IMG/VR virus record: IMGVR_UViG_3300027963_000039 | DNA: 64,000 bases | Source: a virus | Strand: one strand, 5' to 3' | Shown here: positions 1 to 44,803 of the stretch, in pieces | Position numbering within the stretch: the first letter of the stretch is position 1 | How the letters are laid out: every line of letters begins with the position of its first letter | Made by a program: the position numbers and the translations under genes | Notes under the pieces: model-generated | Database searches by the model: none | What the model was told of the DNA's origin: nothing | Seen by the model: the letters and a program-made list of their open reading frames with translations, nothing else

Positions 1-64
1 TGTTGTGAGTGATTCAGATATTTCTGGATTACAGAAAAGTTCTTTAACAATTTGTATCAGGTAT

Positions 65-140
65 GCACCTATCGTCTAACGGTTAGGACGGCGCCCTTTC
101 AAGGCGTAAACGGCGGGTTCGATTCCCCCTAGGTGTACCA
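65..140 (+). tRNA. tRNA-Glu(TTC)
   Basis: Acceptor GCACCTA/TAGGTGT, anticodon loop CT-TTC-AA, GTTCGATT T-loop, encoded CCA. Confidence 0.92.
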
Positions 141-355
141 TATTAAAACGCATTGGGTTACCAAGCCAGTAGGTACCTTAGCAGAGAATTATTCCTAGTG
201 ACGGCTAGGCTCTGCTAAGACTACATGAAGCCTCCCGAGGGTGCTGGAACAACTTGGCAAGTAATGTGTGCGATAGACAAGTCCGTGGACGGCACGGTAG
301 GGCAGGTTCAAAACTGTTATTTCTATCAAACATCCTAATGTGTTTTAATATGGTA
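136..355 (+). ncRNA. Unassigned highly structured RNA (element A) in tRNA array
   Basis: ~22-bp closing stem (TACCATATTAAAACGCATTGGG / CCTAATGTGTTTTAATATGGTA) enclosing nested stems such as CTTAGCAGAG/CTCTGCTAAG, CCTAG/CTAGG, CCAAG/CTTGG, GATAGA/TCTATC and CCGTG/CACGG. Confidence 0.6.
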
Positions 356-479
356 TTAGATTAGTTGACGTAAGCCATGGGTAATCGTAACACCTGAGTA
401 ACTGCGTACATAAACGGTAAGGTGGCCACTAATTCCGTTGAGCGTAGCAAATAGTGCGTCAACTAATCTAATACCATAT
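348..479 (+). ncRNA. Unassigned structured RNA (element B) in tRNA array
   Basis: Perfect 23-bp inverted repeat 348-370 / 457-479 enclosing internal stems (AACGG/CCGTT, CTGCG/CGTAG); directly abuts tRNA-Tyr. Confidence 0.6.
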
Positions 480-572
480 GGAGTAATTGATGCTATGGCG
501 TGTGCATCGGCGGACTGTAAATCCGTCCCCTTGTGGTAAACATTCTTGGTTCGACTCCAAGTTACTCCACCA
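480..572 (+). tRNA. tRNA-Tyr(GTA)
   Basis: GGAGTAA/TTACTCC acceptor, CT-GTA-AA loop, long variable arm, GTTCGACT, CCA; atypical enlarged D arm. Confidence 0.88.
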
Positions 573-580
573 AAAATTAT

Positions 581-656
581 GTGGGTGTGCGCTGAAAGGC
601 TAGGCAACTGATTGCAAATCAGGACAATGCAGGTTCGATCCCTGTCACCCACTCCA
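581..656 (+). tRNA. tRNA-Cys(GCA)
   Basis: GTGGGTG/CACCCAC, TT-GCA-AA loop, U73 discriminator, CCA. Confidence 0.92.
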
Positions 657-774
657 GAGTCACACCATCAAGGTGTGCCAAACCAGCAATGCTGGCGTGT
701 AAAGCGGTGCATCAACGATGTACTTTCGGTATCCGCGTAAGAGATACGGCTAAAGTTCGTAATGCCAAATATTC

Positions 775-849
775 GGGGGATTGGTGCTAACGGGAACACA
801 TGTGCTTTGCAAGCATGAGTTAAGGGTTCGATTCCCTTATCCTCCACCA
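775..849 (+). tRNA. tRNA-Ala(TGC)
   Basis: GGGGGAT/ATCCTCC with G3:U70, TT-TGC-AA, CCA. Confidence 0.93.
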
Positions 850-857
850 AATTTTTT

Positions 858-932
858 ACCGCCTTAGTAAAATGAATATTACACATCGCTACGAACGATG
901 AAGTGGGAGTTTGATTCTCTCAGGCGGTACCA
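858..932 (+). tRNA. tRNA-Arg(ACG)
   Basis: ACCGCCT/AGGCGGT, CT-ACG-AA, T-loop TTTGATT, CCA. Confidence 0.85.
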
Positions 933-937
933 AGTAA

Positions 938-1011
938 GTCTCGCTGGTGTAATGGCAGCATGACGGTCTCCAAAACCGTTGGTTGGGGTTCGAGTCCCTA
1001 GCGGGGCGCCA
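938..1011 (+). tRNA. tRNA-Trp(CCA)
   Basis: GTCTCGC/GCGGGGC, CT-CCA-AA, GTTCGAGT, CCA. Confidence 0.92.
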
Positions 1012-1019
1012 GATTATTT

Positions 1020-1093
1020 GGGGGTATAACTTAGTGGTAAAGTAGTAGGCTTTTAACCTATTAACCGGAGTTCAATTCTCCGTGCCCCTACCA
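1020..1093 (+). tRNA. tRNA-Lys(TTT)
   Basis: GGGGGTA/TGCCCCT, CT-TTT-AA, GTTCAATT, CCA. Confidence 0.92.
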
Positions 1094-1097
1094 GATT

Positions 1098-1172
1098 GGT
1101 CTCAAAGTGTTCATGGACGCACATATGCCTGTCACGCATAAAGAAGGGGATCGTTACCCCTTGAGACCGCCA
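1098..1172 (+). tRNA. tRNA-Asp(GTC)
   Basis: GGTCTCA/TGAGACC, CT-GTC-AC, G73, CCA; non-canonical T-loop ATCGTTA. Confidence 0.87.
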
Positions 1173-1177
1173 AATGA

Positions 1178-1253
1178 CGCGGTGTATGGAAGTGGTCATC
1201 CGTTTGGTCTCATAAGCCAAGAATCGCAGGTTCGAATCCTGCCACCGCAACCA
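1178..1253 (+). tRNA. tRNA-Met(CAT), initiator-like
   Basis: C1:A72 mismatch, CT-CAT-AA, GTTCGAAT, CCA. Confidence 0.88.
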
Positions 1254-1258
1254 GTTTT

Positions 1259-1314
1259 AGGATACTTTCAGCAATCAAATAACTTTAATGGAAATAAAGC
1301 AAAAAGAGTATCCT
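1259..1314 (+). ncRNA. Small hairpin RNA carrying an anticodon-like stem-loop (GGA)
   Basis: AGGATACT/AGTATCCT closing stem, CAGCAA motif, inner 5-bp stem CTTTA/TAAAG with 7-nt loop A-T-GGA-A-A. Confidence 0.45.
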
Positions 1315-1321
1315 GTTAGTT

Positions 1322-1439
1322 TTGTAAATGCTGTTTACAGCAACCGAGTTACAAGTTTAGGGTTGAGGCTCTAATATCGAAAGATAATTAGTTTACTAAT
1401 ACCGTGTTACAAGTGAAGGGTTGAGGCTCTTCTTTACAA
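1322..1439 (+). repeat. Two 30-nt direct repeats with covarying hairpins (probable ncRNA)
   Basis: 1343-1372 and 1401-1430 are 27/30 identical; hairpins TTAGGG-ttgagg-CTCTAA vs GAAGGG-ttgagg-CTCTTC show compensatory changes; whole unit closed by TTGTAAA/TTTACAA. Confidence 0.65.
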
Positions 1440-1448
1440 TTTTATTAT

Positions 1449-1523
1449 TCCAGAGTAGCACAGCGGTAGTGCAGTTGACTGTTAATCAATTGGTCGTAGG
1501 TTCGATCCCTGCCTCTGGAGCCA
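1449..1523 (+). tRNA. tRNA-Asn(GTT)
   Basis: TCCAGAG/CTCTGGA, CT-GTT-AA, GTTCGATC, CCA. Confidence 0.93.
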
Positions 1524-1530
1524 TATATAA

Positions 1531-1605
1531 GGTGATGTAGCACAATGGTAGTGCATTTCCTTCATACGGAAGAGGTTGGGGGCTCGAATCCCTCCATCAC
1601 CACCA
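1531..1605 (+). tRNA. tRNA-Met(CAT), elongator-like
   Basis: GGTGATG/CATCACC, TT-CAT-AC, CCA. Confidence 0.85.
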
Positions 1606-1610
1606 GTTTC

Positions 1611-1684
1611 GCCCTATTAGTATAATGGTATTACGCCTGTTTTGTAATCAGGTTACGGCAGTTCGATTCTGTCATGGGGCACCA
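1611..1684 (+). tRNA. tRNA-Thr(TGT)
   Basis: GCCCTAT/ATGGGGC, TT-TGT-AA, GTTCGATT, CCA. Confidence 0.92.
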
Positions 1685-1709
1685 ATTATAAACATTTATA
1701 GGTAGTGTT

Positions 1710-2353
1710 ATGAAACAAATGGCATTATATCTACGCCATCCCAAGGCTTCACGAGATTGTGTATATGCTATGGTTGATGCACTTTCATCAAATTACCAAA
1801 TAAGAATATTTAATGAAAGTGAGTTAGATGATGATGATTTTTTTGATAACATCGACATTATTGCTTTTCCTGGTGGAATTGGTGATAGTGACACATATCC
1901 TAATTTCTTCACTAGAACAAGAGCGAATCGAATCGCCAACTTCATATCAAATGGTGGTTGTTATCTTGGTATCTGCATGGGTGCTTATTGGGCTGGAAGT
2001 CGTTATTTTGATATACTCAATGATGTAAATCCGGAACAGTATATTAAAAGACCAAATGCAACTGTCCGTAGAAGTTATGGAACAGTTGCTGATGTAGAAT
2101 GGAATGGTTCAAAAGAACAAATGTATTTTTATGATGGTTGTGCATTGATTGGTGATAAAAACAAATTCAAAACAATCGCACAATATGCCAATGGTGATCC
2201 AATGGCAATCATACAGGGAAGAATAGGATTGATAGGTTGCCATCCAGAAGCACCTTTGTATTGGTATGAGAAACCATGGCAATACATAAACAAACATTGG
2301 AATGGTGGAAGACACCATAAACTATTATTAGATTTTGTAAATGAATTAACTAT

Positions 2354-2363
<10 letters not shown>
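1710..2363 (+). CDS. Class I glutamine amidotransferase-like protein (biotin-protein ligase N-terminal/BPL_N type)
   Basis: IAFPGG, YLGICMGAY nucleophile elbow, C-terminal HPE (Cys-His-Glu triad). Confidence 0.75.
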
Positions 2364-2430
<67 letters not shown>

Positions 2431-2436
2431 ATTAAT

Positions 2437-2512
2437 GGGGGATTAGCTCAGCTGGGAGAGCAGTAGCTTTGCAAGCTAAAGGTCAACGGTTCGATCCCGT
2501 TATCCTCCACCA
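2437..2512 (+). tRNA. tRNA-Ala(TGC), second copy
   Basis: GGGGGAT/ATCCTCC, G3:U70, TT-TGC-AA, CCA. Confidence 0.93.
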
Positions 2513-2515
2513 ATC

Positions 2516-2592
2516 GCCTCAATAGCTCATTCGGTTAGAGCACCGTCTTGATAAGGCGGGGGTGCCTAGTTCGAATCTAGGTTGAGGCACCA
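2516..2592 (+). tRNA. tRNA-Ile(GAT)
   Basis: GCCTCAA/TTGAGGC, TT-GAT-AA, CCA. Confidence 0.92.
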
Positions 2593-2596
2593 ATAT

Positions 2597-2670
2597 ATCT
2601 CGATAGTGTAACGGCAGCATACCGGTCTCCAAAACCGTTGGTCGGGGTTCAAATCCCTGTCGGGATGCCA
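2597..2670 (+). tRNA. tRNA-Trp(CCA), second copy
   Basis: ATCTCGA/TCGGGAT, CT-CCA-AA, CCA. Confidence 0.9.
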
Positions 2671-2673
2671 AAT

Positions 2674-2747
2674 GCGGAGTTAGTTTAATGGTAAAACTGT
2701 AGATTTCCAATCTTCCGTTGAGAGTTCGATTCTCTCACTCCGCTCCA
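2674..2747 (+). tRNA. tRNA-Gly(TCC)
   Basis: GCGGAGT/ACTCCGC, TT-TCC-AA, U73, CCA. Confidence 0.92.
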
Positions 2748-2767
2748 ATTATAAGAAGGACATTATC

Positions 2768-3238
2768 ATGCGTAAATTAAATTTAGACAACGTTATTTCT
2801 TTCATTGAACAGCAATCACCTGAAACCAAAGTTTATATTGGTTGTGATTCTGAAAGATTAATGGTTGATGGAATTCCTTATGCAGATTACGTTCTTGCTA
2901 TCGTAGTACATATTAATGGAAATAATGGATGCAAAATTTTTGGTGAAGTTATTCGTGAAAGAGATTTTGACCAGAAACGAAGTAAACCTAGATATAGATT
3001 AATGAATGAAGTTTACAAAGTTTCAGAGTTGTATTTGAAACTTGCAAATGTTCTAGTTGATCGTGATATTGAAGTGCATTTGGACATTAATCCAAATGAA
3101 ATGCACGAATCGTCTTGTGTCATTAATGAAGCTGTTGGATATATAAAAGGAACGTGCAATGTTATTCCTTTAGTTAAACCCGAAGCCTTTGCTGCTACGT
3201 ATGCAGCAGACAGATTTAAGACACTAAAAGCAGCATAA
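2768..3238 (+). CDS. RNase H-like YkuK/DUF458-family protein
   Basis: VYIGCDS, RLMNEV, IEVHLDIN and AAD motifs; embedded in tRNA array. Confidence 0.75.
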   Translation: MRKLNLDNVISFIEQQSPETKVYIGCDSERLMVDGIPYADYVLAIVVHINGNNGCKIFGEVIRERDFDQKRSKPRYRLMNEVYKVSELYLKLANVLVDRDIEVHLDINPNEMHESSCVINEAVGYIKGTCNVIPLVKPEAFAATYAADRFKTLKAA

Positions 3239-3243
3239 CAAAT

Positions 3244-3319
3244 GCGGGAATAGCTCAGTTGGTAGAGCACTTCCTTGCCAAGGAAGATGTCGAGAGTTCG
3301 AACCTCTTTTCCCGCTCCA
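3244..3319 (+). tRNA. tRNA-Gly(GCC)
   Basis: GCGGGAA/TTCCCGC, TT-GCC-AA, canonical D and T loops. Confidence 0.95.
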
Positions 3320-3374
3320 ATTAACAAAACCCCAAAAGCCTATCACAGAAGCTCAAACCTTGAGGTTACTTTAT

Positions 3375-3450
3375 GGTGTCTTTAGTGTAGTGGCCTGCAC
3401 CCTGCTCTGTGAAAGCGGTAGTACCGGATCGATACCGGTAAGACACCCCA
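3375..3450 (+). tRNA. tRNA-His(GTG)
   Basis: G-1 plus GTGTCTT/AAGACAC, C73, CT-GTG-AA, CCA. Confidence 0.9.
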
Positions 3451-3455
3451 TTTTC

Positions 3456-3533
<78 letters not shown>

Positions 3534-3550
3534 AATTTACCAAAAATAAC

Positions 3551-3579
3551 TTGACAAAGCGATATAAGTATAGTAGAAT
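3551..3579 (+). promoter_or_regulatory. sigma70-type promoter
   Basis: TTGACA-17 nt-TAGAAT. Confidence 0.75.
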
Positions 3580-3588
3580 GATATAAAT

Positions 3589-3655
3589 GCGGTGTGTAAT
3601 AGTACGGCGTAGGATTCCCTCTTACGTTACCTGAGCAAAGCAGAACACCGCTCCA
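3589..3655 (+). ncRNA. D-armless tRNA-Gly-like RNA
   Basis: GCGGTGT/ACACCGC + U73 + CCA; 9-bp stem GGCGTAGGA/TCTTACGTT with TTCCC loop; short T-like arm CTG-AGCAAAG-CAG; no D stem. Confidence 0.65.
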
Positions 3656-3676
3656 TTTCTATTAAAGGCTTTCAAC

Positions 3677-3922
3677 ATGAATTTAAAACCAACTGCATCA
3701 AACGTATATATTACCAGAATCGCTTCAGAGAAGCAAACATCTTCTGGTATTATTTTAAAAAGTTCCGAAGAGCCTGATAAAGCAAGAGTCGAATCTATCG
3801 GCAAAGATGTAACCGATCTTTCTATCGGTGATATCATTCTTGTTAATTGGAACAAAGCAATTAAAATTGAAAAAGAATCATACATCATCCCATCAGAAGA
3901 TGTGGTTTTGGTGTTCGAATAA
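3677..3922 (+). CDS. groES: GroES-like co-chaperonin
   Basis: LKP...TSSGIIL mobile loop, ARVESIG, IGDIIL. Confidence 0.85.
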   Translation: MNLKPTASNVYITRIASEKQTSSGIILKSSEEPDKARVESIGKDVTDLSIGDIILVNWNKAIKIEKESYIIPSEDVVLVFE

Positions 3923-3927
3923 AATAT

Positions 3928-4002
3928 AGCGGGGTAGCGCAGTAGTAGAGCACCGGGCTCATAATCCGGAGGTCGGTGGTGCGATTCCACCTCCCGCAAC
4001 CA
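3928..4002 (+). tRNA. tRNA-fMet(CAT), second initiator-like
   Basis: 1:72 mismatch (A:A), CCGGG/TCCGG anticodon stem, CT-CAT-AA, CCA. Confidence 0.85.
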
Positions 4003-4022
4003 AATAAAGAAAGAGATATAAA

Positions 4023-4334
4023 ATGGAAATCTTGGCACTCAAATTAATTACTGGCGAAGATGTTTTGGGTGAAGTTGAATCTCAATCCGAAACCGAATTT
4101 GTAATTTGTAATCCTGTTGGAATCTCTATCGTTCGAGGTAAAGATGGCCAACCCAACGTAGGATTCTCACCTTTTCCACTACACGCTGAACAAAAAACAG
4201 GCACAACTATTGCCTTGGCGAAGAAAAATGTAGTATATTCATACACTCCTGCGGAAGATTTTATTTCAAATTACAATCAAATTTTTGGTTCAGGTATTAT
4301 TCTTCCGCAAACTAAATCATTGATTACGGGATAA
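4023..4334 (+). CDS. Conserved T4-like phage small protein (Sm-like fold suspected)
   Basis: LKLITGEDVLGEV...YNQIFGSGIILP pattern; RBS; precedes DNA polymerase. Confidence 0.6.
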   Translation: MEILALKLITGEDVLGEVESQSETEFVICNPVGISIVRGKDGQPNVGFSPFPLHAEQKTGTTIALAKKNVVYSYTPAEDFISNYNQIFGSGIILPQTKSLITG

Positions 4335-4337
4335 CAG

Positions 4338-6875
4338 TTGAGTTCTAATTTTTATACTAATGTACAATGCTTCGGTAATCACATACTTTATCGTGGCATT
4401 AAAGATGGAAAAAGAGTCAAAGAGAGGGTAGATTATTCACCCTCTCTTTATGTTCCATCCAAACGTATAACAAATTTTACCTCACTTGAAGGTGTATATC
4501 TCGACCAGAAAACATTTGAAACAATACGTGAGTCCCGTGATTACATTAAACAATTTGAAAGTGTTCAAAATGCTCCGAAGATTTATGGTCAAACTCGATT
4601 CGAATATGCGTTCATTGCGGATCAACATCGAGGTATGGTTGATTATGAACAGGATAAAATATCGATTGCGGTAGTTGATATTGAAGTTGGTTCTGAAAAT
4701 GGATTTCCTGATCCATACGAAGCGAATGAACCAATCACAGCTATTTGTATCAAGTACATCAATGGCGACACATATGTTTTCGGTTGCGGAATATATGAAA
4801 CAAAAGGCAAAGAAATTTATGTAAAGTGTAGGGACGAATACTCACTTTGCAAACAGTTCATGGCTTTGTGGACTAAAAAGTGTCCTGATATTCTCACTGG
4901 TTGGAATACAAAGTTCTTTGATGAACCTTACATTATCAATCGTTTCCGTAAAATTCTCGGTGAAGATGAAACCAAAAAATTGTCTCCATGGAATTACATC
5001 GGAGAAAGAAACACCTTTGTAAACAATCGTTCAATGATTGCTTATAATTTGATGGGTGTCGAATCACTCGACTACATCGAACTGTACAAATGGTATGCGC
5101 CAGGTGGCAAATCACAAGAATCATATCGTCTAGATGCCATTGCTCAAGTTGAATTGGGTGAAGGTAAAATTTCTTATGACGAATACGATAATCTACATTC
5201 ACTTTATCGTTTGAATTTTCAAAAGTTTATTGAATATAACATCAAAGACGTTGAACTGATTATCAAGTTAGAAGAAAAACTTAAACTCATCGAATTGGCA
5301 GTTACACTTGCGTATGATACCAAGACAAACTATCAAGATGTGTTTGCACAAACCCGTATGTGGGATTCAATGACATATGCCTATCTATTTGAGAAAGGCA
5401 TTATTGTTCCTCCACGTATCGTCAAAGAAAAAGATTCCGCATTTGAAGGTGCATATGTTAAAATACCTCAGGTGGGATTGCATGATTGGGTGGCATCTTT
5501 TGACTTAAACAGTCTATATCCTCATTTGATGATGCAGTATAATATCTCGCCCGAAACATTGATTGAACCACAAGATTACACGGATGAAATGCGTGAGGTT
5601 CTTTCACAAGGAATTTCTGTTGAAAAACTGTTGAAAAAACAAATCAATACTTCAAGTTTACAAAAGGCAACACTAACACCTAACGGTCAATTTTTCCGTA
5701 CAGATATTCAAGGCTTCTTGCCTAAGATGATGGAAGAAATGTACGAAGATCGGAAAAAGTTTAAAAAGTTGATGCTTCAGGCTAAACAGGAATATGAAAA
5801 TGAATCTGACGGATCCAAAAAATATGAAATCGAAAAACGAATTGCCAAGTATAACAACATACAACTTGCAAAGAAGGTTTCTCTCAATTCTGCTTATGGT
5901 GCTCTTGGTTCTCAGTATTTCAGATTTTATGATTTGCGTATGGCTCTTGGTGTTACTACTGCTGGCCAGTTGTCTATTCGGTGGATTGAAAACAAAATAA
6001 ATGAGTACATGAACAAATTGCTCAGTACAGATAAAGATTATGTAATCGCTTCTGATACTGATTCGATTTATCTACGCATGGGTGAATTGGTGAATAAGTT
6101 CATCAAAGATACTTCTGACAAACAGAAGGTGATTTCTCTCATGGATAAAATTTGCGAAGAAAAACTACAACCATATATCGATAAATCATATAAAGAGTTG
6201 GCAGATTACGTACACGCTTACCAGCAAAAGATGGAGATGAAACGTGAAGGTTTATCTGACAAAGGTATCTGGACAGCCAAGAAGCGTTATATCCTAAACG
6301 TGTACAATAACGAAGGTGTTCAGTATAAAGAACCACAGATGAAAGTTATGGGTTTGGAGATGATTAAATCTTCAACTCCTTTTTCTATTCGTGAGAAGAT
6401 GAAAGAAGCAATCGAACTCATGGTAAATGGTACACAAGAAGATATACACACATTTATTGCCAGTTTCAGAAAAGATTTCAAAGAGTTACCAGCTGAAGAA
6501 ATTTCTTTCCCTAGAGGTCTGAACGGACTAAACACTTACTCGGATGCTGTCACACTATATAAAAAGGGAACACCGATTCACGTTAAAGGTGCTATACTAT
6601 ATAATCATTACCTTAAACAAAAAGATTTAACTAAAAAATATCCGCTCATCCAAGAAGGCGAAAAACTAAAATTTACTTATCTGAAAATGCCTAACCCATT
6701 TAAAGATACCGTTATATCATACCCGTCACGTTTACCTAAAGAGTTCGAATTACAGGAATACATTGATTATGATATGCAATTTGATAAGGCCTTTTTAGAA
6801 CCGATTAAAGTGATTCTAGATTGTATGGGTTGGTCTACCGAAAAAACAAGTTCCATCGAGGATTTCTTTGTATGA
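4338..6875 (+). CDS. gp43: Family B DNA polymerase (T4 gp43-like)
   Basis: Exo DIE, SFDLNSLYP, KVSLNSAYG, SDTDS, KKRY; C-terminal clamp-binding SIEDFF; TTG start. Confidence 0.98.
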   Translation: MSSNFYTNVQCFGNHILYRGIKDGKRVKERVDYSPSLYVPSKRITNFTSLEGVYLDQKTFETIRESRDYIKQFESVQNAPKIYGQTRFEYAFIADQHRGMVDYEQDKISIAVVDIEVGSENGFPDPYEANEPITAICIKYINGDTYVFGCGIYETKGKEIYVKCRDEYSLCKQFMALWTKKCPDILTGWNTKFFDEPYIINRFRKILGEDETKKLSPWNYIGERNTFVNNRSMIAYNLMGVESLDYIELYKWYAPGGKSQESYRLDAIAQVELGEGKISYDEYDNLHSLYRLNFQKFIEYNIKDVELIIKLEEKLKLIELAVTLAYDTKTNYQDVFAQTRMWDSMTYAYLFEKGIIVPPRIVKEKDSAFEGAYVKIPQVGLHDWVASFDLNSLYPHLMMQYNISPETLIEPQDYTDEMREVLSQGISVEKLLKKQINTSSLQKATLTPNGQFFRTDIQGFLPKMMEEMYEDRKKFKKLMLQAKQEYENESDGSKKYEIEKRIAKYNNIQLAKKVSLNSAYGALGSQYFRFYDLRMALGVTTAGQLSIRWIENKINEYMNKLLSTDKDYVIASDTDSIYLRMGELVNKFIKDTSDKQKVISLMDKICEEKLQPYIDKSYKELADYVHAYQQKMEMKREGLSDKGIWTAKKRYILNVYNNEGVQYKEPQMKVMGLEMIKSSTPFSIREKMKEAIELMVNGTQEDIHTFIASFRKDFKELPAEEISFPRGLNGLNTYSDAVTLYKKGTPIHVKGAILYNHYLKQKDLTKKYPLIQEGEKLKFTYLKMPNPFKDTVISYPSRLPKEFELQEYIDYDMQFDKAFLEPIKVILDCMGWSTEKTSSIEDFFV

Positions 6876-7960
6876 TATACATAACACTACTTTCAGCAAT
6901 ATTACTATCCGGTATTGCAGCATATTATTCCATTATCGGTCTTGCTGCTATTTTTACTGGCGCATTTTGGCCTATTGTTTTCATGGGTTCTGTACTCGAA
7001 CTTAGTAAACTAGTTACGACTTCTTGGTTGTATAGAAACTGGAAAACTTGTCCAATTTTACTCAAAACATATTTGACTACCGCTGTTGTTATATTGATGT
7101 TGATTACCAGTATGGGTATTTTTGGATTTTTATCTAAATCACATATTGATTCTACACTGGATGCTGGTGCTAACTCAGTTGAAATCAAAACACTAACACA
7201 ACAAGAAAAAATCACCAAAGAAAGATTGGAATATTTGCTTGCTCGTGCTAAAGATCCATCAACCGCAAGTAATAAACTAGACAGACAAATCCAAGATACA
7301 CAAAAAGAATTAAAAGAAATTGCAAATAAAAAACTACCACTCCTGCGTGAAGAAAATAAATTAATTGCAGAAGTTGGGCCAATCAAATATGTTGGTGAAA
7401 TGGTATATGGTAGTGAAGATGATAATGCCATCGATAAAGCAGTTCGTTTGGTAATCATGTTGATCATGGTTGTATTTGACCCTCTAGCTGTGTTATTATT
7501 AATAGCAGCAAATATGTCCATGAAAAAACCAGAAGTTGAAGAAGAAATCAAAGAAGAAACACCAGATCCATATGTTGCTGATGTAGGAGAAAAACCAACC
7601 GAAGAAGAATTGCAACCTGAAGTAATTTTGACCGAAGAAAAAATAATTGAAATGGCAAATGAGATAAACGATAAAATACAAGAACTCAATAATAATATTG
7701 CCAAGATGAATGAAAACAAAGATGAATCGACCATCAATGTTGACAAAGAAAACGTAACAACAATAGAAGAAAATAAACCAGAACCATTTGCATATGATCC
7801 TGTGACAGATGAAGAAGTTGTTTTAGAACCGGTTAGCAGAGAAGAACATCATGCTCCTGGCGTATACACCGAACACCATGAGGTTGTTGAGGTAAAAAAA
7901 AAGTTGGAACCAAAATATGATTATACTGCTGAGTACGCTTTTAAAGAAAAAGAAAAATAA
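6872..7960 (+). CDS. Membrane protein with coiled coil and acidic C-terminal tail
   Basis: Three N-terminal hydrophobic helices, coiled coil, EVGPIKY...FDPLAVLLLIA helix; ATGA overlap with gp43. Confidence 0.7.
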   Translation: MIYITLLSAILLSGIAAYYSIIGLAAIFTGAFWPIVFMGSVLELSKLVTTSWLYRNWKTCPILLKTYLTTAVVILMLITSMGIFGFLSKSHIDSTLDAGANSVEIKTLTQQEKITKERLEYLLARAKDPSTASNKLDRQIQDTQKELKEIANKKLPLLREENKLIAEVGPIKYVGEMVYGSEDDNAIDKAVRLVIMLIMVVFDPLAVLLLIAANMSMKKPEVEEEIKEETPDPYVADVGEKPTEEELQPEVILTEEKIIEMANEINDKIQELNNNIAKMNENKDESTINVDKENVTTIEENKPEPFAYDPVTDEEVVLEPVSREEHHAPGVYTEHHEVVEVKKKLEPKYDYTAEYAFKEKEK

Positions 7961-19108: not shown

Positions 19109-19832
19109 TTCTACCGCCAATCTTGGTGACTTCATCAATGGCATGCCTGTACTTTCGGGCTTACACAAATCTTATGGAAAATTTGAACTTGTCATTAAAG
19201 GTGAAATGAAAAAATTTAATGGTATAAAAGAATTTCTTATGTACCAAGATTTGTTTACTGAAGTTAATTTTGATTCTGATATATGGATGTATGGTTCAAT
19301 CATCAACCTTAGTTCTTGGACCAGAGAAGATAAAAGACATCCTGATAGACCAATCGAGACATGCCGATATGAGAATTGGTTGAAAGAACAATATAGAATG
19401 GAATTTGATGTTGATGATGGTTTTATTGTAAAAACTCCAGAGTTTGACATTGAAATAAAAGATGATTATTACGTTGGTGATCGTTGGGATGTAGGCAACA
19501 TTGATGATCGTAGAGAAACACACATTCTATCACATCTTGACAAATACGAATTTATTGATTACAATAAAACGATGTTGGAGAACGCATACATTATTAAGAA
19601 TCTAAAGAAACCTTTCATCACAAACTTTACTGGTGTTGGCATGCTTGCTGATATGTGTAATGTTCCTTTGTATTGTGTTTGGAAGGCAGAAGATTGGAAA
19701 CCTGAATTCCGTAGAGGTGAGGATGTGTCTTGGGATGATGGTAAAAATATCAACAAAGTCTTTGAGAAACATTTCTATTTAAATCGTCAAGCAAAACTGG
19801 TTCATGCCAAAGACTTAGAAACATTATTATGA
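19092..19832 (+). CDS. GT-B (GT9-like) glycosyltransferase
   Basis: NLGDFINGMPVL, FITNFTGVGMLA. Confidence 0.6.
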   Translation: MKVYLSSTANLGDFINGMPVLSGLHKSYGKFELVIKGEMKKFNGIKEFLMYQDLFTEVNFDSDIWMYGSIINLSSWTREDKRHPDRPIETCRYENWLKEQYRMEFDVDDGFIVKTPEFDIEIKDDYYVGDRWDVGNIDDRRETHILSHLDKYEFIDYNKTMLENAYIIKNLKKPFITNFTGVGMLADMCNVPLYCVWKAEDWKPEFRRGEDVSWDDGKNINKVFEKHFYLNRQAKLVHAKDLETLL

Positions 19833-20518
19833 TTATTAATATTCAGCCAGATACATTTGGTACAATTAGAAATGGTGACATGATTGCTGCAGCGAATGCT
19901 GTTGCTTATCTAAGAAAACAACAACAAAAAGATATCAAATTTTATTTTGAACCAGGATCAATCAGCCCAGCAAAACATTGCCAAGATTTTCACTCTTGGC
20001 TGATTGAACACACAGACTATTTTTCTGCACAAGAGGGTGTTGATAAGTTATTGTGGAAAAAAGTTAATCTTTGGGATTTCAGGGATATATCCGGTGATCT
20101 GGTCAAAATACCAAATCCACACGCAAGAGAAAAAAAGATTGTTATATGTCCAATTTTTGATGCACCATATAACAAATATCGTAATTGGCCAACAGATTTA
20201 TTTTTAGAAATAATTAAAAAGTATGATAAATTTGATGGTCAAAAAATTATAATCAGCGAAAAGAATTTCAATATTGAAGGATGGACCGATAGTACCAATT
20301 TTATAGAGAGTCTGAAACATATCATGACTGCTGAACTATATGTCGGTGGTGATACAGGACTTTCACATTTTGTTGGTGCTTTAGAGGGTGGTCCTGTTCC
20401 AATCTATTATACGTCTAGCCGAGGACTCCTACATACTACTCCATTTTATTGGATGACAGAAAAAAAAGGTATAATGAAAACATATTGGTTAGATTTTGAA
20501 GGGACAAGATGGCAATGA
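19829..20518 (+). CDS. GT9-like glycosyltransferase
   Basis: RNGDMI, RNWP, YVGGDTGLSH. Confidence 0.65.
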   Translation: MIINIQPDTFGTIRNGDMIAAANAVAYLRKQQQKDIKFYFEPGSISPAKHCQDFHSWLIEHTDYFSAQEGVDKLLWKKVNLWDFRDISGDLVKIPNPHAREKKIVICPIFDAPYNKYRNWPTDLFLEIIKKYDKFDGQKIIISEKNFNIEGWTDSTNFIESLKHIMTAELYVGGDTGLSHFVGALEGGPVPIYYTSSRGLLHTTPFYWMTEKKGIMKTYWLDFEGTRWQ

Positions 20519-32742: not shown

Positions 32743-34436
32743 TGAAAAGCCTTTTGTTATGTCTGGCATTTTTTTGTGTTGGTGCTAATGCTCAGATAGT
32801 TTCTATACCAATTCCTGGAAGTCCACTTTCGTTAAGTGTGCTTGCTAATCCTCAGCCTTTACAGGAACTAAAAAACAATCCATCAGCAACTGCTCACTAT
32901 CTAGGAGATGATGGTTGGGCAAATGTACCGCTGCCATTTGCTTTCCCCTTCTACGGACAATCATTCAATGCATCTACCATGTATAGTAATGGTGCAGTAC
33001 AGTTTGGTGCAAATCGTTCCGCTTCTAATAACAGTTTTTGTTGTGCGGGGTTGCAACTCTCCTCATCAATGGGTCCACAATATAACTATTCCATAATGCC
33101 ATTATGGACCGACTTGATTGGTGCTGAGGGAAACAATCACTACACACTAGGAACAACCAACTCTATGACCTATGGATGGTATGGGGTTCAACAGTACGGC
33201 AGACCTGACAGTAGAAGCAGTTTTGAATTGAAGGTTGATTCCTCTGGTGGTATCGATATGCGATGGTCTGGTGCTATGGTAACTGCACATCCTGTGACCA
33301 TCGGAACGATTGGTAATTCTGCACTGGGTGAATTCACACAAAACTATTTCGGTCCATCAGGTATCAACATTACTAATCCCACTCAGCTTAGTACCGGCGG
33401 TATCGATATGTGTCTTTTGAGTCCTTTAAGTTCACCAACGTGTGCTGGTTATCAAGAAGCGTACAGAACACAACAATGTACAATTAATGTGTTATATGAC
33501 CAGTCTTGTCCTGGTTATCAAATGGCATATTTCAATCAACAATGTTCAATCAATCCTCTGTATAATATAGACTGTCTAGGTTATGCACCAGCATATCTAA
33601 ATGCACAATGCAGGTCAAATCCACTATATTCAACTACATGTGAAGGATATGAACAAGCATATTTAAATGCTGAATGTATTAAAGATTCTTTGTATAGTAA
33701 ATTATGTTCTGGTTATGCAACAGCTTATGCAATTAAGTATCTTGTTCCAAATATTGATTCAACAGCAGTAAACTCATCTTTATCCTCTACAGCTGCAACC
33801 AGAGCGAGTGATCCAACTAGCATCAATACAAACGGTAGAGTATCAACTACCATGGCATCCACAACAATAAACAATGATGGTTCGATATCAACAGGCGTAT
33901 CACCAACAGGTAATAGTAATGTTGATTCTGTCATACAGAATAGAGCGACCTCAGCAACAGGAACATCTCCTGCCGCAGCAGTTCAATTATCTCCACAACC
34001 ACCACAAAACACACCTACAGCTCAGAGACAAGAACAAAAACCTGAAGGTGGGCAACAAAATGCTCAAGGTGGTTCTCAACAAGATAAAAAAGATCAACCT
34101 AAAAGTGCGAGACAAGAATTACAAGAACGTAGAGAAGCTGCAGCTAAAAAAGAGGCTGTTGAAAAATCGAAAGACTTAGCTAATCAAATGTCTCAAGCTG
34201 AAAGTATGCAACAACAAGTTGCTGTTCAAAATATTGTAATACAAGCGATGGGATTTACTCCAGGTTTCGATGTGTACAACAGAACAATTGTTCCTGATGG
34301 AAAAATGTATCGACCATACACCGTTTACAATAATCAACAAAACGTTGACAATCGTAGAGCAAATATTGGTTTGTTCGGAACAACAAATTCAAAATATGAA
34401 GAATTGTTAAATTCACAATATGAGGTAGGAAAATAA
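32742..34436 (+). CDS. Exported protein: NIDO-like domain + five 22-aa Cys repeats + Ser/Thr linker + helical C-terminus
   Basis: Signal peptide; GDD...LPFAFPFYG...SNG...IMPLWTDL; repeats C-x2-NPLY-x3-C-x-GY-x2-AY. Confidence 0.7.
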   Translation: MKSLLLCLAFFCVGANAQIVSIPIPGSPLSLSVLANPQPLQELKNNPSATAHYLGDDGWANVPLPFAFPFYGQSFNASTMYSNGAVQFGANRSASNNSFCCAGLQLSSSMGPQYNYSIMPLWTDLIGAEGNNHYTLGTTNSMTYGWYGVQQYGRPDSRSSFELKVDSSGGIDMRWSGAMVTAHPVTIGTIGNSALGEFTQNYFGPSGINITNPTQLSTGGIDMCLLSPLSSPTCAGYQEAYRTQQCTINVLYDQSCPGYQMAYFNQQCSINPLYNIDCLGYAPAYLNAQCRSNPLYSTTCEGYEQAYLNAECIKDSLYSKLCSGYATAYAIKYLVPNIDSTAVNSSLSSTAATRASDPTSINTNGRVSTTMASTTINNDGSISTGVSPTGNSNVDSVIQNRATSATGTSPAAAVQLSPQPPQNTPTAQRQEQKPEGGQQNAQGGSQQDKKDQPKSARQELQERREAAAKKEAVEKSKDLANQMSQAESMQQQVAVQNIVIQAMGFTPGFDVYNRTIVPDGKMYRPYTVYNNQQNVDNRRANIGLFGTTNSKYEELLNSQYEVGK

Positions 34437-44478: not shown

Positions 44479-44803
44479 TAATCAGGATTTTGATTTCCTG
44501 AGTTTCACTTCAAACGATAATGGTGAGTCATTATCTATTACAGGTGAAAAATATAAAGATCCAGGAACACCAGTCGGAGGCAGCGCTATTGGTCCACAGT
44601 ATCATATAGTCTTGTACAAAGATCATCCAACAGATAAGAAAAAATTCTGTGATGTGGAATGTTTTAATGGTATACTTGCTGATCCTTGGGAATACATCTC
44701 CGGACTAATTCCTGTAGGTTTCTATGGCGTAATCGCAAGAACAACTACCACTTCCGAACCAATCATACAAAGGCTGGTTGACACCATCAAAAAAGTGTGT
44801 TAG
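44447..44803 (+). CDS. Hypothetical protein
   Basis: AAGGA RBS, packed between nuclease and rnh. Confidence 0.6.
   Translation: MLDFLVELKNDNQDFDFLSFTSNDNGESLSITGEKYKDPGTPVGGSAIGPQYHIVLYKDHPTDKKKFCDVECFNGILADPWEYISGLIPVGFYGVIARTTTTSEPIIQRLVDTIKKVC

Follow-up and report, generated by a model that had tools for sequence, protein, structure and literature searches.

A reduced tRNA-Gly-like RNA of T4-like phages as a candidate glycine carrier for a DruA-family, Mom-like GNAT

Positions 3589-3655 (+) of the window (the whole 64,000-nt stretch of viral DNA that was analysed) hold a 67-nt, tRNA-Gly-like RNA ("type A"; 86.6 bits with model R1). It belongs to a family, found in freshwater T4-like phages and apparently confined to phages, which keeps glycine identity fixed, has lost the marks of translation and is linked at the genome level to a Mom-like GNAT of the DruA family (henceforth class I). 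A preliminary description of the locus had offered three readings, namely an aminoacylatable, non-ribosomal glycine carrier, a nuclease decoy, or a 5' regulatory or stabilising element of the downstream transcript; those three properties favour the first. We consider it quite probable that the element is a dedicated, non-ribosomal glycine donor for the class I enzyme, and we regard a non-proteinogenic glycine carrier for the DruA-family, Mom-like GNAT class I as a moderately likely best explanation of the observations as a whole.

Results

A compact tRNA-like fold is conserved across phages

The two ends of the element are those of a tRNA-Gly. The 5' strand of the acceptor stem (3589-3595, beginning G1 C2 G3 G4) pairs with 3645-3651, pair 7 being frequently open among homologues, and the stem is followed by the U73 discriminator (3652) and an encoded CCA (3653-3655), both invariant in set A1 though outside the search pattern. 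The GlyRS acceptor elements listed in the preliminary description are all there, in an acceptor GCGGUGU/ACACCGC followed by U73 and the encoded CCA, as is the T-like loop AGCAAAG, which takes the place of TTCRANY in a short T arm (3630-3644) of 3 bp plus a C-A mismatch here and of 4 bp in most homologues. The element had been called D-armless, which proved wrong: a 3-bp mini D hairpin without G18G19 (GUA-AUAG-UAC, 3596-3605) is 100% paired and covaries. The anticodon arm (3606-3628) has 9 bp, with an A32-U38 pair, U33, anticodon UCC (3616-3618) and C37; the central 9-bp stem is confirmed, and what had been taken for a 5-nt loop (UUCCC) is really a 7-nt anticodon loop closed by A32-U38.

The canonical traits of bacterial tRNAs (G18G19 in the D loop, a TTCRANY T loop, 5-bp T and anticodon stems, and a purine at position 37) are missing from the element. 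ARAGORN called no tRNA at 3589-3655, and Rfam gave no match there at E values up to 10, RF00005 included. Folding of the single sequence was only mildly better than that of shuffles (z -2.13). The two normal tRNA-Gly genes that had been noted in the window are confirmed (2674-2747 and 3244-3319), with the UCC and GCC anticodons between them.

An 18-mer from the 5' end of the element retrieved 52 viral contigs and looser patterns retrieved more; the family comprises 86 distinct sequences of 66-69 nt at 243 loci (the pattern matches L184, L194, L202 and L257 were judged to be chance and excluded). A pattern that included neither the 3' end nor the anticodon retrieved 58 distinct homologues, every one of which ends in CCGCTCCA; base pairing holds in 95% of alignment cells (35-60% in slid controls), and covariation lies above all 500 shuffles and all slid controls. 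Together these results argue against a chance fold. Covariation was detected in all four helices, with changes on both sides in 14 of 23 pairs (18 of 23 with a wider set, whose alignment was fitted to the structure), and the anticodon arm has compensatory changes in 8 of its 9 pairs. The inner pair of the D hairpin is AU in 36 cases, GC in 16, CG in one and UA in one, and is never mismatched; the compensatory variant GUG-AUAG-CAC occurs in 17 of the 86 sequences and GUC-AUAG-GAC in L196. Local decay, which the preliminary description would have recognised by homologues with a normal cloverleaf, does not fit these data: the homologues share both the length and the reduced structure, and to judge by its substitutions the family is under selection on structure.

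As far as sequence searches reach, the family is phage-only. No type A copy was found among 185,579 GTDB genomes, and a type C pattern run on GTDB gave only one 10.8-kb MAG contig, on which the matching sequence is the same as that of a phage copy, plus two doubtful matches, so that there is no sign of a cellular family. A blastn search of the element against cultured phages returned only chance matches. In four metatranscriptomes the phage was barely present; only tRNAs of other organisms were matched, and neither the element nor groES was covered.

The RNA exists in several forms

Sister forms, which model R1 connects at E values of 1e-5 to 1e-11, occur in the same phages. A 70-nt form has a D hairpin around UAUAGAA and a T loop UGCGAAU, and it either replaces the 67-nt form in its slot or stands in tandem with it; a 65-nt form without a clear D stem and mixed forms are found as well, and types A and B swap in one slot or stand in tandem. 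Marine pelagimyophages carry a cloverleaf of 74 nt whose D loop lacks GG, whose T loop is GGCAGUA or AGCGUUA and whose anticodon is ACC, UCC or GCC; this form was missed by model R1 in whole genomes and found by pattern. The D-arm words common to these forms suggest one RNA lineage that may have shrunk stepwise (74, 70, 67, 65 nt).

Several individual loci illustrate this variety. The 65-nt form, with loop GUCCA, sits in tRNA arrays of class I phages (L057:948-1012; G035 44676-44740 (-); G036 33830-33894 (-)), and tandem pairs of two different mimic forms are found at L081:2254-2397, L085:5916-6058, L091:5901-6045, L249:4377-4516 and L268:7633-7776. The cultured phages HTVC008M (91140-91213 = L305:21013-21086 (+)) and Mosig (7779-7852 (-) = L304:19802-19875 (+)) each have an unannotated, 74-nt tRNA-Gly(ACC)-like gene without G18G19 or TTC, and a short "hypothetical protein" is annotated over the Mosig locus. 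A second, milder odd tRNA-Gly(GCC), with a D loop lacking GG and the T loop UGCGAAU, is present in some class I pelagimyophages (L438, L479, L527, L529, L530, L547).

Glycine identity is kept and the marks of translation are lost

The determinants of glycine identity in bacteria are G1-C72, C2-G71, U73, C35 and C36 (PMC9976931). Across the family, G1-C72, C2-G71, G3-C70, C35, C36, U73 and CCA are fixed while other positions covary, and the sequences thus have what a bacterial GlyRS substrate requires (G1-C72, C2-G71, U73, C35, C36, CCA). Both C35 and C36 are present in 80 of 80 parsed homologues and the wobble base is free (A, U or G), the anticodons being ACC in 62, UCC in 17 and GCC in one; bacterial tRNAs are hardly ever known to have an ACC anticodon. 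A point against charging is the length of the anticodon stem, which may put C35/C36 in the wrong place for GlyRS.

The features that a tRNA presents to the translation machinery are altered. C37 occurs in 75 of the 80 parsed homologues, positions 32 and 38 are paired in 79 and C33 is found in 13; the T stem has 3-4 bp (most commonly UCUG/CAGA), the acceptor-T branch measures 10-11 bp, and there is no elbow. EF-Tu affinity is set by the first pairs of a 5-bp T stem (PMC7826273), and the family is without the tight T-stem pairs G49-U65 and G51-C63, as are the staphylococcal non-proteogenic tRNAs (PMC7826273, PMC12256121). Read from its sequence, the element looks like an RNA that is charged but does not decode, and its reduction goes further than that of those staphylococcal RNAs. 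One could alternatively see in it a minimal working decoder of GGN codons, similar to shortened mitochondrial tRNAs, given that the window copy has U33 and a glycine anticodon and that GGU, readable by ACC, is the commonest glycine codon among the long genes of the window (154 of 278). This is very improbable in view of C37, the 32-38 pair, the C33 variants, the 9-bp anticodon stem, the branch length and missing elbow, and the normal tRNA-Gly(UCC) and (GCC) already present.

Promoter and gene context

The phage is T4-like, and the element lies within its array of 21 tRNA genes, between tRNA-Met and groES, with the gp43, UvsX and gp41 genes downstream. The consensus promoter that had been reported upstream, a putative sigma70-type site (3551-3579 (+)) with TTGACA (3551-3556), a 17-nt spacer and TAGAAT (3574-3579), is indeed the best promoter-like site in window positions 1-5000 (11/12), and the predicted transcription start near 3586 would give a short leader ending in AU. 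The -10 box is 8-9 nt from G1 in 36 of 45 promoter-bearing homologues and U stands at -1 in 85 of 86, a spacing and a base that we take to fit a short leader cut by RNase P. The late-like box TATAAATG (3582-3589), also proposed earlier, has to be given up: it overlaps G1, is found in 3 of 86 homologues and would place the start inside the RNA.

In this phage the RNA comes first in the groES-fMet-gp43 transcript, 21 nt before the groES start, and the locus taken by itself would suit a 5' regulatory or stabilising element of that transcript, or a decayed tRNA. The groES gene, however, comes next in only 21 of 86 variants; the others precede tRNA-Gly or some other gene, or form a tandem with a sister RNA, and this context largely refutes the groES-leader reading. 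The exchange of types A and B, together with the tightly conserved length and structure, likewise argues against a leader or decay, which we hold to be the least probable of the explanations considered.

The neighbourhood has other features of its own. A basic 60-aa ORF (start MATKGS) directly follows the RNA at ~87 loci (e.g., L017, 20 nt downstream), and a conserved, short non-coding stretch ending in CCCTGTAACCGGTAAGCAGGA or similar, with its own promoter, lies just upstream of the mimic at L025, L037, L051, L067 and L107. In the window, the tRNA array also contains a BPL_N/GATase-like gene (1710-2363) and an RNase H-like (PF04308) gene (2768-3238). A ~195-nt non-coding stretch in the gap between tRNA-Glu and tRNA-Tyr (150-345 (+)), with a terminal stem, a predicted energy of -60.8 kcal/mol and no Rfam match, is a candidate structured RNA. 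After tRNA-Met, a GGATACT...AGTATCC inverted repeat surrounds a CAGCAA word and an A-rich loop (1258-1316 (+); sub-threshold Rfam match only), and a short direct repeat with GGGTTGAGGCTCT (1352-1367 and 1413-1428) occupies the intergenic space before tRNA-Asn.

The RNA is linked to a class I DruA-family gene

Clustering of neighbouring genes revealed a 420-466 aa protein whose gene stops 20-130 nt short of the downstream RNA, or of a sister form, at ~35 loci. This class I protein, typically ~420 aa long, belongs to the DruA family (PF14236). Its gene lies outside the window, which encodes only a paralogue (class II); the nearest record, G001, 99% identical to the window where compared, carries both, with class I at 19159-20421, ~10-12 kb before the window start. 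Class I was found in 28 of 30 RNA-bearing records, the other two being 21-23% fragments. Among 50,697 cultured-phage records, full-length class I occurs in HTVC008M and Mosig only, and both have the odd tRNA-Gly; it is the sole tRNA match in the HTVC008M genome, a phage that has been listed with 0 tRNAs (PMC7029224).

Searching from class I gave a similar picture. Among Mosig-like loci, 15 had 9.5 kb or more of sequence beyond class I, and the odd tRNA-Gly was present in 14 of them; the RNA was within 10 kb in 15 of 22 freshwater loci; four long freshwater class I contigs without it in that range had it elsewhere in the record, two more freshwater loci were likewise RNA-bearing, and a class I homologue at 45% identity had an odd tRNA-Gly elsewhere in its record. 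Negative results for the RNA come from searches with a GCGG...CGCTCCA pattern, some of them in incomplete records, and are to be read as such: none of 13 other Kyanoviridae without class I (seven with class II only; the related Melnitz included) carried it, and distant class I homologues (44-48% identity; L401-L405, L494) had no odd tRNA-Gly within the 6-21 kb examined, mostly in partial records.

In a pelagimyophage set anchored on an unrelated gene, cobS, 13 members have both class I and the RNA, 11 have neither and none has one only (Fisher p = 4e-7, kinship ignored). The tree of this set implies at least two joint changes of class I and RNA, and the honest count to hold against the p-value is two to three independent joint events. 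The pair is not a single cassette, since in these phages other genes and a distance of 5-10 kb separate the two. Almost all of the freshwater clade has both traits, so the linkage contrast rests on the marine phages with the 74-nt form and on approximately two independent changes.

This co-occurrence also bears on the proposal that the RNA acts, independently of the GNAT, as a decoy against anticodon nucleases of the host or against other defences that sense tRNAs. Its own strong promoter, compact fold and location in a tRNA array would all suit a decoy, but the 13/0/0/11 distribution, and the linkage to the GNAT in general, would then go unexplained. Moreover, with its closed anticodon loop and free wobble base the RNA imitates a nuclease target poorly, and the strictly kept acceptor identity and CCA point to charging. 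We thus consider a decoy quite improbable.

The class I protein has a predicted GNAT fold, possibly close to that of Mom

Against PF14236, class I scores 79 bits and class II 33 bits (cut-off 27). The predicted model of class I (pLDDT 95, pTM 0.91) has a GNAT fold, and a fold search against 48,161 chains placed phage Mu Mom (8BV8) first (Z 9.7, rmsd 4.0, 171 aligned), with other GNATs within 1 Z; in Foldseek, Mom ranked 13th (E 0.07) and no match of any kind had E < 0.001. By sequence, class I matched neither PF25680 nor, in a profile search against the PDB, 8BV8. Genes for other consumers of aminoacyl-tRNA (FemAB, Acetyltransf_6, LPG synthase) were found in none of 5 complete genomes.

The class II gene of the window (368 aa, PF14236; 11935-13041 (+)) follows gp41; in L401, class I and class II are adjacent, before gp43. 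Numerous cyanophages that lack the RNA also have class II, which one record names "methylcarbamoylase mom", and for that reason class II may use another donor. We rejected class II as the partner of the RNA: seven cyanophages and three marine records with class II only, the latter among the negatives of the cobS-anchored set, have no RNA.

Mom moves glycine from Gly-tRNAGly to the N6 of adenine in dsDNA; it accepts every one of the E. coli isoacceptors, probably because it recognises the acceptor end (PMC13219725). Its catalytic residues are R111, S124, D149 and R151, and its product is 6-NcmdA. Class I is like Mom (PF25680, PDB 8BV8) in its GNAT fold, with Mom, an enzyme that needs Gly-tRNAGly, as top structural match; unlike Mom, it belongs to PF14236, is twice as long, has no sequence match to PF25680 and has a putative activity. 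Given that Mu Mom uses ordinary host tRNA-Gly isoacceptors, Mom chemistry does not demand a private RNA. Both phage paralogues resemble Druantia DruA (PF14236, DUF4338) in scoring above the family cut-off, and differ from it in residing in the replication module of lytic phages.

The RNA itself also has close parallels. In Staphylococcus aureus, the non-proteogenic tRNA-Gly NP1-NP3 serve as donors for FmhB, FemA and FemB (PMC7826273, PMC12256121); like them, the phage RNA retains glycine identity, has an altered T arm that should bind EF-Tu weakly, coexists with normal isoacceptors and would be used by a tRNA-dependent GNAT-fold transferase. The staphylococcal RNAs, however, are full cloverleaves with 5-bp T stems that are encoded in a cellular genome and feed peptidoglycan, whereas the phage RNA has 67 nt, a 3-bp D hairpin, a 9-bp anticodon stem and a 3-4 bp T stem, and occurs in phages only, with no FemAB gene in the five complete genomes searched. 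A 76-bp, tRNA-Gly-like "pseudo-tRNA" (anticodon DCC), to which no function was assigned, lies inside a mom homologue of Dehalococcoides ssrA islands (PMC3146451). It too is an odd tRNA-Gly with a free wobble base (A/G/U) and a tie to a Mom-type gene, but it is a complete cloverleaf embedded in a gene on a genomic island, in contrast to the free-standing, much reduced RNA of lytic T4-like phages, with its own promoter and a DruA-family partner.

Two further explanations keep the GNAT as partner. The donor role may be the same and the acceptor another: class I, alone or with class II, may place glycine on a protein, on a component of the cell surface or on a different base. All linkage evidence fits this equally well, other GNATs tie with Mom in the fold search, where FemA appears too, and there is no Pfam match to Mom. 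We nevertheless find it unlikely, as Mom ranks at the top and aligns over more residues than the entries that follow it, both paralogues stand among replication and recombination genes (gp46, gp41, gp43), and the Dehalococcoides locus places a tRNA-Gly-like sequence within a mom homologue. In the other explanation, the GNAT would be a TacT-like toxin that acetylates Gly-tRNA and the RNA its substrate, antidote or regulator; TacT recognises U73 and G71 of tRNA-Gly (PMC9976931), both fixed in the family, and strict co-occurrence would likewise be expected. To guard the phage, though, would take a decoding-competent tRNA, these phages also keep normal tRNA-Gly, the 420-aa enzyme is far larger than TacT, and TacT was outside the top 50 rows of the fold search, all of which makes the toxin scenario improbable.

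Discussion

Non-proteogenic tRNA-Gly, Mom chemistry and a tRNA-Gly-like locus in a mom homologue are already known. Neither Rfam nor the searched papers yielded the reduced architecture, the series of four forms or the tie to DruA-family enzymes. That literature, which included few subscription journals, contained no description of a non-canonical tRNA-Gly in phages, nor one connecting DruA/DUF4338 to Mom, GNAT or tRNA chemistry.

Under the glycine-carrier explanation, the RNA would be transcribed early from its own sigma70 promoter, and host RNase P and 3' nucleases would, as the visible signals suggest, cut the transcript back to its encoded CCA. Host GlyRS would charge it through the conserved G1-C72, C2-G71, C35, C36 and U73, and EF-Tu and the ribosome would presumably shun it, given its T stem of 3-4 bp, lost elbow and closed anticodon loop. 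Class I may then take the glycyl group and transfer it, as Mu Mom does, to the N6 of adenine in newly made phage DNA, which would block host nucleases. That the donor role and DNA as the target hold jointly seems to us slightly favoured. A broader proposal is one that we see as evenly poised, i.e., that aquatic T4-like phages have a widespread, two-part DNA hypermodification system consisting of a DruA-family, tRNA-dependent glycyl transferase and its own orthogonal carrier, shrunk through the 74-, 70-, 67- and 65-nt forms until it is a minimal natural substrate of GlyRS and is passed over by the ribosome.

If correct, these proposals would provide a first biochemical lead, and a function, for the DruA family (DruA/DUF4338). 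They would name both the carrier and the enzyme behind a base modification that has gone unreported and is probably common among abundant phages of fresh water and the sea. They would also show how a phage could keep a glycine supply away from EF-Tu, and would point to natural, very small substrates of bacterial aminoacylation that tRNA finders have overlooked.
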